A DNA stretch of 20,635 nucleotides, taken from positions 1 through 20,635 of the forward strand of contig LKMP01000015.1 in NCBI GenBank assembly GCA_001563915.1, given 5' to 3'. The notes under the pieces are model-generated. The model ran no database searches. It saw nothing but the letters and a program-made list of their open reading frames with translations, and had not been told where the DNA came from. The position numbers were made by a program, and so were the translations under genes. This DNA is from Nanohaloarchaea archaeon B1-Br10_U2g21. GTDB taxonomy: Archaea > Nanohalarchaeota > Nanosalinia > Nanosalinales > Nanosalinaceae. This document shows, piece after piece, positions 2,989 through 20,635 of the stretch (positions are counted from its first letter, which is position 1; the number at the start of each line of letters is the position of its first letter).

Positions 2989-5634
2989 ATGCATAAGTAC
3001 GTCACCTTTTTTCTGTTCCTGTTAGTCTTCATAGGTCTAAGCACTGCTTACCAACAGAGTACTAGCATACCTGATGTAAATTTTGAAGGCGGAGAAACTT
3101 TTGATCCTAATTCAGATGAAATGGGATCTATTGAAGAGATAGAACTATTTTTCAGACACGATGATGATAATACGCCTTGGAACTCTGAAATTGAGGTGGA
3201 GGGAGAAAGTTTTGAAGTAGTAGACGAAGAAAGAATTAACAGCGATGAAGGAAGACTATTAGCAGAGGCTGAATCACCAATAGAGCTTTTTGAGGGGGAT
3301 ATAGACGTTTTTGTAGATTCTGAAGATCAGCTTCTTTTAACATCAATCGTGCTTATAGGCGATAGAAGGTTTCAGAGTGTTACTCCTGCTGAAGAAACAG
3401 ACACTGGCATTGCCGAAACTCTTGACCCTAATCTAGAAGTCGTAGTTGACCATCCTGAAGACCAGTTTATGGACTTTACATTTTATGATATTGAAGAAGA
3501 ATCAGAACTCGGAGAAACATATACTTTTACTACATGCGGTGTTGAAGGCCGAATTGGGCCTTCTCAAGAAGACTGTGATTCTGAATACGAAGGAGATAGT
3601 CTTGAAGACTCTGTAAATATTGTTGACTCCGGATATCAAGAATGGACTGTTCCTTTTGATGGGAAGTACAATATTACTGCTGCAGGCGCTAGAGGCGGAG
3701 GAGATGATGGAGGCGATGGCGCAGTAATCCAATCCGAACAATATCTAAATGAAGGAGATACTCTGAGAATTTTAGTAGGTCAAGTAGGCGATGCATTTTC
3801 CGATACTTTTACTTCTGGAGGTGGAGGTACGTTCATATCGACCACAGAAGGAAATAATTATACAATGGCTGATGGTACAACTCACGAGCCCTTGCTAGTG
3901 GCAGGAGGCGGTGCAGGCGCAACTGATCCTGGTCATGACCAAGATGGTAGTTTAGATGAAGACGGAAATAGTGCTTACTCTTCAAGCGGCTGTGGTGATG
4001 CTGGTTCTCCTGGCGAAAGTTGTGGGGGAGGCACAGTAGGAGGCGGAGGTTTTGACGTAGCTGGTGGAGGAGGACTATGTGAGGGGGGTGGAGAAGACGA
4101 ACCTTACGACGAAGAAGAAGGAGGATGGTCTTTTAACACAGGAGGAAAAGGAGGCGACGGAGATTCAGAAGGCGGGTGGGGTGGAGGAGGAGCATCAACT
4201 GAAGTATCATGCGATCGTGCAGGAGGTGGTGGAGGCTACTCTGGCGGAGCGGCTTCAAGAGGAGGGAGCGGAGGCGGAAACGCTGCAGGAGGAGGAGGAG
4301 GCAGTTTCGTACACGATGACGGAAATTTGATAGATGCAGAAGCATCAAACACCGGACAAGGTATTGTCGAAATAGAGATTGAAGGAAGTCCTGATCAGGT
4401 GATAGGTACAGATAGTAATATTGAGTCTGGAGAACTAGCAGAATTAGAGTGGAGCGATAGAGAGAATTTTGAAGATTACAGCTGGACTGTAGAGGCATGT
4501 GAGACTGGAAACGAAAACTGTGTCTTAAGCACATCCATATGGGATTTTACAGTCGAAATTTCTGATCCTGATATAGATCTTAGCTTTGAACCTGATAACG
4601 ATCAACATGCTTTTGACGCAGTAGCTGAGATTGAATTTGGACGAGACTCAGGCGAATATAATGAAGAATGCTACTTCAACATTACCAATGGAAATGAAGA
4701 ATACAATCACATAGATGGCGATTTTGAAACTACTGGTACAAGAACTGCAGTTTGTGAGAAGAAAATATATCCTGAGTCTAATGATGACAAATTTGATCCC
4801 GATGATGAATATAATGGGCTTTTTGAAGGATTCGAAGTTTGGGACGATATTGAAGTAGATGTGAACGTGACTGATCATGGTATTGGATCAAATAATTTGA
4901 CACGCACTAACCCTATCCGAAATCAAGATCCGGTAGCCTCACTTAATACTCCTAATGATGGCGGTTTAGCTCTAGACGAAGATGTAGAGCTTTCTATACA
5001 AGTCAATAACCCTGAAGGAGATGACGTAGATGTGGAACTACGAGACCGGAACGCTGAAGAAACACTGCACTCAGATAGTTACTCTTCAGGAAGTACCGTA
5101 GATACAATTTGGGAAGATTTAGATTTAGGAACTTATGAGTGGGATATAGTGTTAGAAGATCCCTACAATCGGACAACAAGTCAGCTGTTGGAGTTTCACC
5201 GAGTTGTATCACGTAGTTATAGACCTTCAACAGGTGTAGAACATGAATACTCTTCCTTAGTTGTCTCTGAAGGCGAAAGCGACTTTATGTTCTTTGAAAT
5301 AACAAATCAACAGTCTACTCGAGACTTTACTACTTATTTAGAAGGCGATGGAGTTGAAACAGATTTCGTTGAAACTGATGAAAGCTCAAAAAGTTATGAA
5401 GTCGAACAGGGCGAAACAGAAAGATTTCATGTAAGAGTTACTGGTGAAAATCCTGGAGAACACGAGCTGAGAATAATTACGGAAGATGATAATCTAAAAG
5501 TAAATACAACAGAAACGTTTCCTATATTTATCCAGTCAAGAGAAACAGAAAGCCATGGAATACCCGGCCTAACACTTTATTATATAGGCCTGATATACTT
5601 GCTAGCTGCTAGTTATTTCTGGTTTTCAGCCTGA
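2989..5634 (+). CDS. Large acidic cell-surface protein: signal peptide, Ig-like repeats, ALK/LTK-like glycine-rich domain, C-terminal IPGL plus transmembrane anchor
   Basis: Hydrophobic N-terminus MHKYVTFFLFLLVFIGLSTA. Motifs FTTCG..G..GP, QEWTVP..GKY.ITAAGA.GG, L.ILVGQ, PLLVAGGG and polyglycine runs. C-terminus GIPGLTLYYIGLIYLLAASYFWF. Several N-x-S/T sequons. Confidence 0.85.
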   Translation: MHKYVTFFLFLLVFIGLSTAYQQSTSIPDVNFEGGETFDPNSDEMGSIEEIELFFRHDDDNTPWNSEIEVEGESFEVVDEERINSDEGRLLAEAESPIELFEGDIDVFVDSEDQLLLTSIVLIGDRRFQSVTPAEETDTGIAETLDPNLEVVVDHPEDQFMDFTFYDIEEESELGETYTFTTCGVEGRIGPSQEDCDSEYEGDSLEDSVNIVDSGYQEWTVPFDGKYNITAAGARGGGDDGGDGAVIQSEQYLNEGDTLRILVGQVGDAFSDTFTSGGGGTFISTTEGNNYTMADGTTHEPLLVAGGGAGATDPGHDQDGSLDEDGNSAYSSSGCGDAGSPGESCGGGTVGGGGFDVAGGGGLCEGGGEDEPYDEEEGGWSFNTGGKGGDGDSEGGWGGGGASTEVSCDRAGGGGGYSGGAASRGGSGGGNAAGGGGGSFVHDDGNLIDAEASNTGQGIVEIEIEGSPDQVIGTDSNIESGELAELEWSDRENFEDYSWTVEACETGNENCVLSTSIWDFTVEISDPDIDLSFEPDNDQHAFDAVAEIEFGRDSGEYNEECYFNITNGNEEYNHIDGDFETTGTRTAVCEKKIYPESNDDKFDPDDEYNGLFEGFEVWDDIEVDVNVTDHGIGSNNLTRTNPIRNQDPVASLNTPNDGGLALDEDVELSIQVNNPEGDDVDVELRDRNAEETLHSDSYSSGSTVDTIWEDLDLGTYEWDIVLEDPYNRTTSQLLEFHRVVSRSYRPSTGVEHEYSSLVVSEGESDFMFFEITNQQSTRDFTTYLEGDGVETDFVETDESSKSYEVEQGETERFHVRVTGENPGEHELRIITEDDNLKVNTTETFPIFIQSRETESHGIPGLTLYYIGLIYLLAASYFWFSA

Positions 5635-5970: not shown

Positions 5971-6684
5971 ATGACTGATATGCTATACTATCCTAGTAAT
6001 GAGTACCAAAAAGAGTTTGAAGCTAAAGTGCAGGGGAAAGGAAAAGACTATGTAGTACTAGATAGAACTTTGTTTTATCCTGAAGGCGGAGGCCAACCCT
6101 ATGATACTGGCGAATTGAAATGGAGGGATGAAAATGCGTCAGTCATAAAGGTGAAGAAAAAGAAGGGAGAAATACGGCATTATATTGATGGATCTCTTCC
6201 TGAACCTGACACAGTAGTTAAAGGCAAAATCAACTGGGATCGACGTTACAACCATATGCGTATGCATAGCGCTCAGCACATTATTTCATGGATTGTGCTG
6301 AACATGTATAATGGACAAACTGCTGGAAATCAGATACATGAAGATTATTCTCGAATCGATTTTGAACCAGTTGAGTTCAGTAGTCGTGATGTAGAAAAAA
6401 TTGAACAAGCTTCAAACGCATTAATTGAAAAGGAACTTGAGGTCAAAAAGAAAGAGATGGCTCGGGAACTAATAGAAAAGCAGATGACTGAAGGCCGCAC
6501 TAACCTTGAACTCATACCAAGCAACATCGACCCTCTCAGAGTAGTAGTGATCGCAGATGAAGACGTATGTCCATGCGGTGGAACTCACGTAGACAATCTC
6601 AAAGAAATCGGGAAAATCAACATAGTAAACAGAAAGTCAAAAGGCGCAAACGTAGAAAGACTTGAATTCAAACTTGAGAACTAG
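5971..6684 (+). CDS. alaX: Free-standing alanyl-tRNA editing protein (AlaX-M type)
   Basis: VVLDRTLFYPEGGGQPYDTG, Zn-binding HSAQH (HxxxH) and CPCGGTHV; 237 aa. Confidence 0.93.
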   Translation: MTDMLYYPSNEYQKEFEAKVQGKGKDYVVLDRTLFYPEGGGQPYDTGELKWRDENASVIKVKKKKGEIRHYIDGSLPEPDTVVKGKINWDRRYNHMRMHSAQHIISWIVLNMYNGQTAGNQIHEDYSRIDFEPVEFSSRDVEKIEQASNALIEKELEVKKKEMARELIEKQMTEGRTNLELIPSNIDPLRVVVIADEDVCPCGGTHVDNLKEIGKINIVNRKSKGANVERLEFKLEN

Positions 6685-8462
6685 AGTTCATAGAACTGAC
6701 CTTTCTTTCTCTGCTCCTTATCTTTCTGACTATCAGGCTTATTAGCACGAGGCCTGCCCGTTTCAGGGTCTTTCCTGAACGTTACGTCGACTTCTTTCAG
6801 GAACTCATTCAAAGCCTCTTCAATCATCATAGGTTCTGTTGACTCTCCACTGATCCCTGGCTTTCCTTTGAACACTATTCCCCGGTCTGATACGTAATCA
6901 AGCAGTAAGAGGTCGTGATCAATTATCATCAATGGTTTCTCCTCTTTTCGTGAGAAGTTCTTCAGAGTCTTGCCGAGTTTTACACGAGACTCAACATCGA
7001 GAAATGCAGAGGGCTCATCAAGCAAGTATACATCTGCATTGCGTGATAGGCAGATCGCTACCGCGACCCGTTGAAGCTCTCCACCCGAAAGGTTGCTTAA
7101 CTTTCTCTCATACAGCGGCTTAATTTCCAGTGGTTCTTCGATACGCGTCTGAAACCTCTTCGAGTTCATAACCGCTTCGTTTGGGAAGGCTTCCTTCACC
7201 AATACGTCAGAGGCCTCTATGTACTGAGTCTTATATGATATTGAGGTCTTCGGTGACTCTCCACTATCAGGTTCAATAGCTCCTGCAAGCATCTTAGCAA
7301 AAACTGTTTTGCCCAGTCCATTTTCTCCCACAATTCCAATTATCTCTTCTTCTTTCAGGTTTCCTTCTGAGGCGTTCAATTCAAATCCATCGTCTCCGAA
7401 CTTCTTTTTCATTCCGCTGTATTGCAGTATTTCTGCTCCTTCTCCTCTTTCTTCTCCAGATTTATCGAAGCTAATAGCATCGGAACGAATCTTCAGATTC
7501 TGTGACGGTATATGACCTTCCAAGTACTGATTAATCCCATTTTTCGTGCTTAACGCGTTAGATACCATTCCGTAGCTTCCTTTCTCACCGTAGAATATAT
7601 GGATTCTGTCTGAAATCAGGTCGAGTGTCGCGAGATCGTGTTCAATTGCGAGCACATTTTCATCAATACTTGTTATCTCGCCGCCAGTTTTCAGTCTCTG
7701 ACCTACGTCGAGATAGCTCGAGGGCTCATCGAAAATGTAGATCTCCGCGTCTTCGAGCAGCGTGGATGCTATGGCAAGTCTCTGAAGCTCCCCGCCGGAC
7801 AACTGTTCAAGCTCACGATCAAACAGCTTCATCAGCTCGAACTTTTTCGCTATCTCCTCCACGCCTTCCTGTTCGCCGTTTCTCTCAAGGAACTCTTTTA
7901 CAGTACCCTTGAAAATCTCAGGTATTCTTTCTACTTGCTGTGGCTTTGTGGCAGACTTTAATTCTTCGTTCGCCAGTTTTTCGATGTGGTTCTGAAGGCC
8001 TGTGCCTCTAAAGTTTTTCTTTATGTCCTGCCACTCAGGAGGCTGTTTATAGTCACCAAGATTAGGTTTGAGCTTGTTTGTTATTATTTTTGAAGCAACA
8101 GTTTTTCCTAGACCATTTTCTCCTAGTATTCCTATTGCTGCATCTTCTTCAGGTACTGGAAGCCCGTACAACCTAAACTCATTTTCTCCAAACTGATGTA
8201 CTTTATCTCCTTCTTCGTGTACAAGCTGTACCATTTGTATAGCTCCTTCGTATGGATATTTGTTGACCGCCATTTTGTGCGCTTCCATAACATCTCCATC
8301 ATTGATGTGCAGTTCTTCGTTTTCGTCTATATAGAACCCTCCTTCTTTTCCTGCACGATTCAATGGATCAAAGTTAATTACTGTCTCTCTAGCTAAATCT
8401 GGCTCTATTTTATCTTGATCAACTATCACTATGAATTTTTTCGAGTTCTTTTCCGAAGCCAT
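6681..8462 (-). CDS. rli: Ribosome recycling ATPase ABCE1 (RLI) with a cysteine-free N-terminal domain
   Basis: Two nucleotide-binding domains (GENGLGKT twice, LSGGELQR twice, DEPSSYLD / DEPSAFLD), HQFGENEFRLYGLPVP, and the ABCE1-specific tail TFRKDPETGRPRANKPDSQKDKEQ. Confidence 0.96.
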   Translation of the reverse strand: MASEKNSKKFIVIVDQDKIEPDLARETVINFDPLNRAGKEGGFYIDENEELHINDGDVMEAHKMAVNKYPYEGAIQMVQLVHEEGDKVHQFGENEFRLYGLPVPEEDAAIGILGENGLGKTVASKIITNKLKPNLGDYKQPPEWQDIKKNFRGTGLQNHIEKLANEELKSATKPQQVERIPEIFKGTVKEFLERNGEQEGVEEIAKKFELMKLFDRELEQLSGGELQRLAIASTLLEDAEIYIFDEPSSYLDVGQRLKTGGEITSIDENVLAIEHDLATLDLISDRIHIFYGEKGSYGMVSNALSTKNGINQYLEGHIPSQNLKIRSDAISFDKSGEERGEGAEILQYSGMKKKFGDDGFELNASEGNLKEEEIIGIVGENGLGKTVFAKMLAGAIEPDSGESPKTSISYKTQYIEASDVLVKEAFPNEAVMNSKRFQTRIEEPLEIKPLYERKLSNLSGGELQRVAVAICLSRNADVYLLDEPSAFLDVESRVKLGKTLKNFSRKEEKPLMIIDHDLLLLDYVSDRGIVFKGKPGISGESTEPMMIEEALNEFLKEVDVTFRKDPETGRPRANKPDSQKDKEQRKKGQFYEL

Positions 8463-19198: not shown

Positions 19199-20635
19199 TT
19201 GACAAACTACGAAGACAAATATCCTAACTTGCATTACATAAGCTCTAAACTCGCTAAAACCGAAGAACTATCGGATCACAATAAACAAGTCTTAGATGAT
19301 TTTTTCGATATCTGGAGAGACAGAGTGAAGAACAAGTCATCCTGTGAAGATTACGCTAACAAATGGCTCAACTTCTCTCCTGAGATCGACTTCAAGATAG
19401 ATGAGGCTACAAGAGACGATATAGAAACGCTCTACAAGAAACTTGAGAGAGGTATTATATCTAAGGATAATGGAGAAAAGTACGATCCTCAGTCAAGAAA
19501 TAAACATCACAAAGCCCTTAGCACATTCTACCGCAACTTCATCGACTATCCTAACAGAGGTTACAACAACAGCGACATCCATGGACCAAGCTTAGTAGAC
19601 GGTCAAAAAGGATTACTGACCACTGAAAAGAACACCAAAGTAAAGAAGGAAACAAAGCCAGATCCTTCACAGATAAAGGAAATAGCATCTAATGTTGACA
19701 AGTTCCGAGATAGATGTATTCTGGTCTTTGGTTGGGCTGTAGGAGCAAGATCTGGAGAAATCTTCCCCACGAAAAGTAAACCTCAACCGTTACTCTGGAA
19801 GGACATAAAGTTCAACGATGATGATACAATGACGGTTCATCTACGTCTCAACCAGAAGAAAAAACCTCCAGAGAGAAGAAGAGTGAATGTGGCAGTTTCT
19901 AAACCGTTAATGATGGAACTATACAGGAGAGAAAGTCCGGAACCTGAAAATCCGGTTTTCAAGAAAGATAATCCGACACTTGTGTGTCCCAGATGCGAAT
20001 CACAGGTAAAGAGAGTCAAAGGTCAGATGAGTAATACCAGTTCTAACCGAAGATATCGGTGCGAGAAGTGTCAAAAGGTCATTAAAAGAAGAAAACTGGT
20101 TGAGGAGTATGGGCCTCTAAAGCGGAAAAGAGTCAATGACATAATAGCTGAGGCTGTAAACAACTCTGATTTCAGAAACCTTGATAAGACAAGCCACAAA
20201 TTCTTCCGGAAGGCTCGTGCATTACAGAAAGTAGCTATGAACTGGAACGACTCCAGTATTAATGGTTTCTTCGGCTGGGAAGTAGGTTCACAAGCCAAGA
20301 AAAAGTATTACGAAGCTCTTGAAGTAAGCCAGAAAAAAGACTTGAAACAGGAACATCCAGAACTCGATATCAACGTTGAAGGAAGGTTCTTCGATGACGC
20401 ATTAAGACCTACAAAGTGTTCAAGCTGTGGAAAACTTAACAGCAGACTCTGGGACTTCTGCATAAGCTGCGACAACTCTCTGACATACCAAGGCTTGAAG
20501 ATGAAAGGAGATAGCTCCAAAGAATCAACGAAAGACGTGATTAGAAACGAAACAAAAGACGAAATGATAGACTTCTTGAAAGAAAAAGCTGGTATCTCCG
20601 AATCAGAGTTTGAAGAAGCTTTAATGCAAAGAGTA
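19199..20635 (+). CDS. Tyrosine recombinase/integrase with two Zn-ribbon motifs (3' end beyond the window)
   Basis: Absent from the ORF track because there is no stop in the window. TTG start 6 nt after AGGTGA; open for 479 codons. Catalytic motifs RDRCIL..GARSGE, SHKFFRK, FFGW, KKYY; also CPRC..CEKC and CSSC..CISC. Confidence 0.9.
   Translation, partial: MTNYEDKYPNLHYISSKLAKTEELSDHNKQVLDDFFDIWRDRVKNKSSCEDYANKWLNFSPEIDFKIDEATRDDIETLYKKLERGIISKDNGEKYDPQSRNKHHKALSTFYRNFIDYPNRGYNNSDIHGPSLVDGQKGLLTTEKNTKVKKETKPDPSQIKEIASNVDKFRDRCILVFGWAVGARSGEIFPTKSKPQPLLWKDIKFNDDDTMTVHLRLNQKKKPPERRRVNVAVSKPLMMELYRRESPEPENPVFKKDNPTLVCPRCESQVKRVKGQMSNTSSNRRYRCEKCQKVIKRRKLVEEYGPLKRKRVNDIIAEAVNNSDFRNLDKTSHKFFRKARALQKVAMNWNDSSINGFFGWEVGSQAKKKYYEALEVSQKKDLKQEHPELDINVEGRFFDDALRPTKCSSCGKLNSRLWDFCISCDNSLTYQGLKMKGDSSKESTKDVIRNETKDEMIDFLKEKAGISESEFEEALMQRV

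Follow-up and report, generated by a model that had tools for sequence, protein, structure and literature searches.

An ABCE1 without the cysteine ligands of its iron-sulfur domain in a nanohaloarchaeon

The ABCE1 gene and its N-terminal domain

The DNA analysed here, a stretch of 20,635 nucleotides that comprises positions 1 to 20,635 of contig LKMP01000015.1 of Nanohaloarchaea archaeon B1-Br10_U2g21 (the window), carries a complete gene for the ribosome-recycling ATPase ABCE1 whose N-terminal iron-sulfur domain contains no cysteine. ABCE1 is described in passages of PMC6088178 as present in all archaea and eukaryotes and as binding two diamagnetic [4Fe-4S]2+ clusters through eight cysteines. 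By these eight residues, spaced Cx4Cx3Cx3CP ... Cx2Cx2Cx3CP, the protein is recognized as an iron-sulfur protein; in B1-Br10_U2g21, 0/8 are present. The preliminary description of this DNA, made from the letters alone, had stated that the first 80 or so residues (nucleotides 8223-8462 encode residues 1-80) are devoid of cysteine and that the only one in the protein lies in the second ATPase domain, and both statements hold: the sole cysteine is C471 (nucleotides 7050-7052), with none in residues 1-470.

The 593-residue protein scores 668.8 bits against NF009945, the NCBIfam equivalog model for ABCE1/RLI (cut-off 469), with residues 11-592 on profile positions 4-589 of 592, and it matches solved ABCE1 structures over nearly its full length at E-values from 7e-150 (3bk7_A, 6.6e-150) to 8e-121. 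Pfam returned 20 matches at E ≤ 1, which include two ABC_tran domains and from which PF04068 (Fer4_RLI) and every Fer4 family are absent. The genome consists of 815,638 bases in 24 contigs and is 92.17% complete. A six-frame search of it with NF009945 gave seven matches, of which the ABCE1 locus (669 bits) alone exceeds the cut-off, the other six being generic ABC ATPases of at most 77 bits; no second ABCE1 passes this cut-off elsewhere in the 92.17%-complete genome. PF04068 has no match at E ≤ 1 in its six frames either, and the motif CxxCxxCxxxCP occurs in none of its 872 crude open reading frames (ORFs). A second, cysteine-bearing ABCE1, which the preliminary description had named among the findings that would overturn its reading, was thus not found in the genome. 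Eight single-contig genomes of the phylum (G031, G039, G046, G050, G052, G053, G058 and G065) likewise give one ABCE1 match apiece. Upstream of the start, just three in-frame codons precede a stop, and a hidden cysteine-rich N-terminal extension is therefore absent.

HMMER aligns the N-terminus with solved ABCE1 proteins with at most two single-residue gaps (query 8-99 to 3bk7 18-109; query 11-100 to 6tmf_d 3-92). Read without gaps, the alignment places I19, A24, V28, D32, M59, H62, A65 and Y69 at the sites of the eight ligands, here numbered C1 to C8. The alignment of the scaffold and the replacement of the ligands by I, A, V, D, H and Y had already been described; the listed residues are right, but the methionine (M59) had been missed. 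One MAFFT run moves the register of C5 and C6 by one to two residues, which makes the assignments of M59 and H62 less certain. Twenty-five columns are invariant among 27 cysteine-free N-terminal domains (N-domains) from two families, including D32, P33, L34, N35, R36, V58, M59, E60, H62 and P70. Going by the topology of ferredoxins and the crystal structure of ABCE1, C1-C3 and C8 presumably ligate one cluster and C4-C7 the other, and natural four-cysteine ABCE1 forms agree with this split.

The remainder of the protein is that of an ordinary ABCE1 (Table 1). In both nucleotide-binding domains (NBDs), the Walker A, Q-loop, signature, Walker B, D-loop and H-switch motifs occupy columns that are invariant across an alignment of 80 ABCE1 sequences, 8-Cys forms included; in NBD1, the invariant columns are G111, G114, N116, G119, K120, Q175, S222-E225, D245, E246 and H275. 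GENGLGKT and LSGGE are found in both NBDs, DEP at residues 245 and 482 and HD at 275 and 516. In hinge 2, R563, R570, N574 and S578 are invariant in the same 80 sequences, and in the linker H89, Q90, N94, F96, R97, L98 and Y99 are invariant among the cysteine-free forms. As judged from these alignments, the two ATP sites are intact, as are the two hinges.

The gene resides among ordinary archaeal housekeeping genes, namely those for methionyl-tRNA synthetase, an AlaX-like protein, a KH protein, FtsZ, GatC/GatA, SepF, prefoldin, exosome subunits, SBDS and proteasome alpha, and eRF1-family genes are present in the genome. Identity as an ABC-F factor was considered and rejected: NF000355 gave 161.2 bits with partial coverage (cut-off 380) and the EttA models 111 bits (cut-offs 599-807).

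Table 1. Coordinates of the ABCE1 gene and its parts in the window (C1 to C8, positions of the canonical cysteine ligands)
Feature	Position	Strand	Remarks
ABCE1/RLI gene, complete	6681..8462	-	593 aa + stop; the genome's only ABCE1
N-terminal ferredoxin-like domain, aa 9-80	8223..8438	-	0 Cys; former 2x[4Fe-4S] domain; no PF04068 or Fer4 match
C1, C2 and C3 sites, aa 19-28 IEPDLARETV	8379..8408	-	now I19, A24, V28; HMMER alignment to 6tmf_d and 3bk7
C4 site, aa 32-36 DPLNR	8355..8369	-	now D32; P33 and R36 = S. solfataricus P25 and R28
C5, C6, C7 and C8 sites, aa 59-70 MEAHKMAVNKYP	8253..8288	-	now M59, H62, A65, Y69
Linker (cantilever) from N-domain to NBD1, aa 81-100	8163..8222	-	aligned to 3bk7 and 6tmf; boundary approximate
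NBD1, aa 101-300 (approximate)	7563..8162	-	Walker A GENGLGKT at 114, LSGGE at 221, Walker B IYIFDEP at 241, H-switch IEHD at 273
Hinge 1, aa 301-340 (approximate)	7443..7562	-	unbroken alignment to 3bk7; G309, N311, G316 invariant (80 sequences)
NBD2, aa 341-545 (approximate)	6828..7442	-	Walker A at 379, LSGGE at 458, VYLLDEP at 478, IDHD at 514; contains C471
Hinge 2 / C-terminal ribosome anchor, aa 546-593 (approximate)	6684..6827	-	3bk7 alignment reaches residue 591

Distribution of cysteine-free and one-cluster forms

The best 120 of 7,986 passing homologues are 60-100% identical to the protein, and those sources that give a name point to Nanohaloarchaea, including the cultivated Ca. Nanohalobium constans, Nanosalina and Nanohalococcus occultus, in agreement with the DPANN origin presumed in the preliminary description. 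In all 120 of these best matches the first 95 residues are free of cysteine; I, A and V occupy C1, C2 and C3 in 118, A and Y occupy C7 and C8 in 119, and DP[LIV]NR is present in every one. With no cysteine in 120/120 homologues and the replacements shared by nearly all of them, the loss is neither chance nor sequencing error. That a 24-contig draft might deceive through an assembly or binning error, or that an unusual genetic code might mask cysteine codons, is an explanation to which we attach practically no weight: the same type recurs across 120 clusters of the database that are independent of one another, to which named cultivated organisms contribute contigs of 0.94-1.05 Mb, other proteins of the genome have normal cysteine motifs (cysteine accounts for 0.75% of the residues that the crude ORFs encode), and two DNA runs, which may be the source sample, contain 100% of the sampled words, no RNA run being listed beside them.

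Across 70 genomes of the phylum, ABCE1 was found in 55 and a PF04068 match in 2. The N-domain is cysteine-free in 29 of the 31 ABCE1 genes read from loci of the phylum, 24 of them from family f1 and 5 from family f5, the latter with V, V, A, D, M, H, I and I at C1-C8. All eight cysteines are present in G001, of family f2 (GC content 32% over the fetched locus), and in 113 of 119 relatives of its ABCE1, the remaining six being of f5 type. In the class Halobacteria (41 genomes), both cysteine motifs were found in all 30 of the ABCE1 genes fetched. A phmmer search with the N-domain against 1.84 billion representatives returned 17 matches at E ≤ 1e-3, and is uninformative on unrelated cysteine-free ABCE1 in other lineages.

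An intermediate state is represented in family f1 itself. The ligand positions of the G035 protein read C, C, C, D, T, H, C and C; its locus is syntenic, with ABCE1 adjoining the same KH gene (68% identical) and FtsZ, and its closest homologues among those listed are cysteine-free forms (71-72% identical; 57% to the B1-Br10_U2g21 protein). When five one-cluster N-domains were used to scan species-representative genomes for the pattern, 53 loci were obtained, or 52 once a spurious Chitinophaga match had been excluded. C1-C3 and C8 are kept and C5 and C6 are missing in all 52; Asp stands at C4 in 51 and a His three residues ahead of C7 in 52, and C7 is occupied by C in 27 loci, by S in 19 and by P in 6. 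Four ligands, C1, C2, C3 and C8, would be enough for one [4Fe-4S] cluster. Most carriers are labelled Woesearchaeota or Nanoarchaeia; they also include Halorutilus salinus, a Halobacteria metagenome-assembled genome (MAG) and several entries with doubtful bin labels.

These forms bear on the question of whether the cysteine-free domain is devoid of any cofactor. D32, E60 and H62, together with M59 or H52, lie at or next to the C4-C7 site and could bind a single Zn, Fe or Mn ion that replaces one cluster structurally. Among the 27 cysteine-free sequences, D32, M59, E60 and H62 do not vary and H52 hardly does, and the Asp at C4 (51/52) and the His at C6 (52/52) were already fixed in the one-cluster forms, which suggests that selection acted on the two together at the loss of the first cluster. 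The same Asp-His pair, however, would serve equally well as a buried hydrogen bond or salt bridge, Pfam matched no known metal-site motif, and the residue at C5 differs from one one-cluster form to another (T, M, S, Q, N or L, as read from the rows and untallied). We therefore consider such a metal site unlikely.

The order of these events was approached with trees built on the ATPase body only, with the N-domain excluded; they come from quick searches and do not represent a species tree. One-cluster forms labelled Woesearchaeota or Nanoarchaeia make up one clade (Shimodaira-Hasegawa-like approximate likelihood ratio test, SH-aLRT, 97). A separate clade (98) unites f5 with a group of Halorutilus-type and f1 sequences, G035 among them, and its neighbours are 8-Cys forms. 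In approximately unbiased (AU) tests on 35 rows, a topology with all zero-Cys f1 sequences together and G035 outside was not rejected (difference in log-likelihood 2.4, p-AU 0.43); a single clade of all zero-Cys rows from f1 and f5 was rejected (116, p-AU 1.8e-7). Owing to this rejection, the sequences indicate that the zero-Cys state arose, and the last cluster was lost, at least twice within the phylum; the differing replacement residues of f1 and f5 agree with two losses. G035 is 0.44 identical to f1 in the N-domain versus 0.70 in the body, and the N-domain appears to have changed sharply at the last step and then frozen. The events would run from the 8-Cys form through a form with a single cluster, in which C4 had become D and C6 had become H, to the zero-cluster form.

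Several further sequences on or near this tree deserve mention in their own right. Halorutilus salinus (G070; loci L094/L146) and the Halobacteria MAG (G071; L106/L147) are small-genome members of the class Halobacteria, each with a single ABCE1 of the one-cluster type, and both proteins fall within the nanohaloarchaeal clade beside family f1 (SH-aLRT 99). This placement could reflect gene transfer or bear on the relationship between nanohaloarchaea and haloarchaea. G074 and G097 each have a single ABCE1 as well, with low scores like those of G070 and G071 (about 770 bits versus 898-958 in the other 38). P0122, P0123 and P0127 are very divergent full-length ABCE1 proteins with 0 or 1 cysteine in the N-domain, and their end branches measure 1.8-3.9 substitutions per site.

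In family f4, of the same order (G003-G012; loci L183-L185), no ABCE1 match was obtained at E ≤ 1e-50 in any of ten genomes, which are 80-93% complete and one of which is in 8 contigs; in five of them, matches at E ≤ 1e-10 were just generic ABC proteins of at most 94 bits. Nearby ABC ORFs of about 600 residues were considered as divergent ABCE1 and rejected, being exporters with ABC_membrane and ABC_tran domains. The neighbouring KH gene is present in the four f4 genomes searched, with other genes following it in G009 and G010, and eRF1-family genes occur in nine of the ten. The absence of ABCE1 from a whole archaeal family would be noteworthy on its own account.

Fold, conservation and ribosome contacts of the domain

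Given the 27 cysteine-free sequences as its only input, AlphaFold2 predicts a b-a-b-b-a-b arrangement for the N-domain, with predicted local distance difference test (pLDDT) values of 82-95 for the 10-residue blocks between residues 11 and 80; when the floppy ends are counted, the mean is 79.1. In the full-length model (mean pLDDT 88.4, predicted template modelling score 0.84), the N-domain blocks reach 82-90. Foldseek with the 100-residue model lists ABCE1 in 14 of the 15 top rows, followed by ferredoxins (3bk7: E 2.1e-3, probability 1.00, TMq 0.64), and VIA-align superimposes the N-domain model on 3j16_B (Z 9.7) and 3bk7 (Z 9.2), both with a root-mean-square deviation of 2.0 A over 74 residues, and on 6tmf_d (Z 8.8). 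The cysteine-free domain is thus predicted to keep the ferredoxin-like fold of ABCE1, and a different fold, which would have spoken against the preliminary description, did not emerge.

The domain is also strongly conserved. Within family f1, identity is 0.79 over the N-domain (residues 9-80) versus 0.70 over residues 101-593, and within f5 the corresponding values are 0.87 and 0.70. In six of nine close pairs (dS was saturated in the other three), the ratio of nonsynonymous to synonymous substitution (dN/dS) by the Nei-Gojobori method lies between 0.004 and 0.083 in the N-domain and between 0.029 and 0.128 in the body. By these measures the cysteine-free N-domain is the best-conserved part of the protein and is under tighter purifying selection than the ATPase body. 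This conservation weighs on the notion of a decaying remnant, in which ABCE1 would act through its ATPase body alone or would have taken another role. The loss of all ligands is at first sight what the decay of an iron-sulfur domain looks like, and the lack of ABCE1 in 10/10 genomes of the related family f4 means that the constraint on recycling may be relaxed in the phylum. A decaying domain, however, would hardly be more conserved than the NBDs in both families, with dN/dS down to 0.004; nor would it be expected to retain its length without frameshift or indel relative to the solved structures (at most the two single-residue gaps seen by HMMER), or a confident predicted fold. Decay thus seems to us very improbable.

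The protein contact between ABCE1 and uS12 is small, and most of the interaction is mediated by RNA. For the S. solfataricus iron-sulfur domain bound to the 30S subunit, passages of PMC7196836 name P25, R28 and S29 as contacts of uS12 and R2, K15, N17, E19 and K59 as contacts of rRNA. In the B1-Br10_U2g21 protein, P25 and R28 correspond to P33 and R36 and are kept, and S29 corresponds to A37; across the 80 ABCE1 sequences P33 is invariant and R36 nearly so. Since these two residues are retained almost throughout ABCE1, the uS12 contact is plausibly kept. None of the five rRNA contacts is identical (R2 to F10, K15 to L23, N17 to R25, E19 to T27 and K59 to N67), and those close to the remodelled first helix are not conserved.

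Taken as a whole, the sequence, conservation and predicted structure support well the interpretation that the protein is a cluster-free ABCE1. We consider it very probable that this is the organism's working ribosome-recycling ATPase, in which the domain has been remodelled and the clusters have been lost stepwise. The preliminary description had proposed a cluster-free ABCE1 with side chains filling the core; the first part is borne out by the single copy, the 0/8 cysteines, the predicted retention of the fold and the hydrophobic or polar residues at all eight sites, and the filling of the core is the part that we infer. I19, A24, V28 and Y69 would occupy the space of the cluster at C1, C2, C3 and C8, and an invariant polar set, D32, M59 and H62, together with A65, that of the C4-C7 cluster. 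With side chains in both cluster sites, the cysteine-free N-domain would be a self-supporting rigid body. ATP-driven closure of the NBDs would then displace it from its resting place and wedge the ribosomal subunits apart, as passages of PMC7196836 describe for canonical ABCE1, and after splitting it would come to rest on the small subunit in the vicinity of uS12 and h44.

Some points weigh against a cluster-free, canonically working ABCE1, in addition to the possible metal site considered above. The ligand cysteines of yeast ABCE1 are mostly essential, according to passages of PMC3442406, and cluster-free function must therefore have needed extensive co-adaptation of the domain. Only 2/8 of the 30S-contact residues (P25 and R28) are identical to those that PMC7196836 lists for S. 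solfataricus, so that the docking mode may differ from that of canonical ABCE1. Foldseek gave no match at E ≤ 0.001 for the 100-residue model, the best being 2.1e-3, and AlphaFold2 was trained on canonical ABCE1 structures, which makes the fold prediction not fully independent. The AU tests were run under LG+G4 with groups chosen after the tree had been viewed, and the division of the ligands between the two clusters is our presumption.

Iron-sulfur supply and comparison with known systems

The loss of the cysteines was at first suspected to follow from the loss of iron-sulfur cluster assembly. In favour of this, small DPANN genomes often shed pathways, and no ferredoxin-family protein was found among the 183 ORFs with at least 4 cysteines that were scanned out of the 872 crude ORFs (one 7,852-residue ORF was omitted for length). 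The genome nevertheless retains SufB and SufD (C7:8067 and C7:10164) and two class-V aminotransferases of SufS type, one adjoining the SUF genes, and the same scan of cysteine-rich ORFs identified a NifU_N/SufU protein, Dph2, an XPD-like helicase, an endonuclease-III-like glycosylase, Elp3 (CxxxCxxC, CGGGCIYC) and a TtuA-like protein. Nor does cysteine loss go with SUF loss across the phylum, a correlation that the preliminary description had proposed as a check: SufBD (PF01458) was found in 47 of the 49 other genomes of family f1 and in 6/8 of f5, the two families with cysteine-free ABCE1, and elsewhere in 0/1 of f2, 0/1 of f3 and 1/10 of f4. Radical SAM proteins occur in 47/49 of f1 and in 7/10 of f4, with 14-19 copies in four f4 genomes. 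Conversely, no PF01458 match was obtained in G001 (locus L011), which alone in the order has an ABCE1 of the canonical 8-Cys type; this genome gives three radical SAM matches and probably uses another iron-sulfur assembly system. As cysteine-free ABCE1 coexists with SUF, loss of assembly fails as an explanation, and we hold it to be even less credible than decay of the domain. For the same reason, the data argue against any simple link between the loss of iron-sulfur assembly and the loss of iron-sulfur proteins.

Salinity or an oxic habitat was rejected as the sole cause: oxic brine alone is insufficient because haloarchaea keep their clusters (both motifs in the 30/30 genes mentioned above), and the one-cluster MAGs include groundwater-named isolates. 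One idea is that the clusters were given up under a lower iron or iron-sulfur demand in a cell with a handful of iron-sulfur clients. Another is that their loss would lessen exposure to oxidant damage of the iron-sulfur supply; passages of PMC3442406 argue that its iron-sulfur dependence makes ABCE1 a main target of oxidative stress. As a side observation on the clients, the endonuclease-III-like glycosylase (G000:C10:9236-9898) reads Cx6C...x5C, with Gly at the third cysteine of the usual Cx6Cx2Cx5C, and its site may be undergoing erosion too.

Other features of the 0.8-Mb genome were recorded in passing. Five core genes contain inteins, namely those for aRF1 (beside the SUF genes), the FttA/beta-CASP nuclease, a Hel308-type helicase, ribonucleotide reductase and PolD DP2 (G000:C7:4248-6983, L066:6733-10404, L072:7664-11449, L078:7018-11058 and L080:4-4932); all five match Intein_splicing and all except DP2 also LAGLIDADG. 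A 596-residue protein with 10 cysteines (G000:C4:19625-21415; L054:17217-19004) has a weak match to HAP2-GCS1, the gamete fusogen family (E 2.4e-6; 26.8 bits, under the 27.4 cut-off). In the window itself, two forward-strand ORFs with 10 cysteines each are without a Pfam match, one of 881 residues at 2989-5634 and one of at least 479 residues at 19199-20635 that runs off the end. The 7,852-residue ORF (G000:C20:13966-37524) has 69 cysteines.

The observation is real, and what it amounts to is a cysteine-free variant of a known protein amid an unexpectedly rich evolutionary series. No report of cysteine-free ABCE1 in nanohaloarchaea or DPANN archaea was found in the full text of PubMed Central open-access papers and bioRxiv, a scope that leaves subscription journals and supplements aside. 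In passages of a release-factor review, ABCE1 is named in the introduction and the reference list only, and by title or abstract none of the open-access papers on Nanohaloarchaeota, iron-sulfur and SUF deals with ABCE1. As to the series as a whole, the chances appear evenly balanced that DPANN-type archaea have shed the ABCE1 clusters one at a time, with a widespread one-cluster form, two nanohaloarchaeal families that independently replaced the last cluster with side chains and a third family that is without ABCE1.

ABCE1 has been cited as a reason why eukaryotes cannot lose iron-sulfur biogenesis. Its iron-sulfur domain is called essential in passages of PMC7196836. The lethality of most ligand mutants has kept the actual function of the clusters from being settled. 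That the only ABCE1 copy of this salt-lake organism keeps the predicted shape of the domain without any of the eight cysteines suggests that the clusters are replaceable scaffolding. If the shedding of clusters one at a time outlined above is real, the clusters of a protein that ranks among the most conserved iron-sulfur proteins would be such scaffolding and have no redox or sensing role, and archaeal ribosome recycling could run without iron-sulfur clusters and perhaps without ABCE1. A natural, conserved cluster-free ABCE1 is the missing control experiment, with carriers available in co-culture and one-cluster intermediates alongside, and it opens to test whether the clusters are purely structural, which side chains can stand in for them and whether the cluster-free domain can be transplanted into a canonical ABCE1.

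Compared with canonical ABCE1 (P. abyssi 3BK7, S. solfataricus 6TMF and yeast Rli1), the B1-Br10_U2g21 protein has the same length and the same order of N-domain, NBD1 with its insertion, hinge 1, NBD2 and hinge 2; all of the ATPase motifs are common to both and the predicted N-domain fold matches (Z 9.2-9.7), but the eight ligand cysteines and the PF04068/Fer4 match of the canonical proteins are missing. With one-cluster ABCE1 (G035, Halorutilus salinus and others) it shares the Asp at C4, the His at C6, DP[IL]NR, xExH and the architecture, whereas it has I, A, V and Y where these forms keep C1, C2, C3 and C8. ABC-F ATPases (EttA and ribosomal-protection ABC-F proteins) are also soluble twin-NBD proteins that act on the ribosome and need no iron-sulfur cluster, but they are devoid of the N-terminal ferredoxin-like domain and the hinges of ABCE1. 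Ferredoxin-like domains of the RNA polymerase subunit D/Rpb3 type, some of which are cluster-free, likewise serve as structural modules, and fold matches to subunit 3 of plant Pol IV/V were obtained (8hyj_C, Z 7.6; 8hil_C, Z 6.9); the protein that contains them is unrelated, however, and they do not form part of a mechanical element that moves. A further parallel is offered by engineered cysteine mutants of yeast Rli1 (e.g. C58A), in which cluster ligands have likewise been removed from the same domain. According to passages of PMC3442406, only a single ligand change is tolerated there, at the price of a labile [3Fe-4S] cluster and oxidant-sensitive cells, and the other ligands are mostly essential. 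Unlike these mutants, the nanohaloarchaeal ABCE1 is without all eight cysteines, and this in a remodelled and strongly conserved domain.

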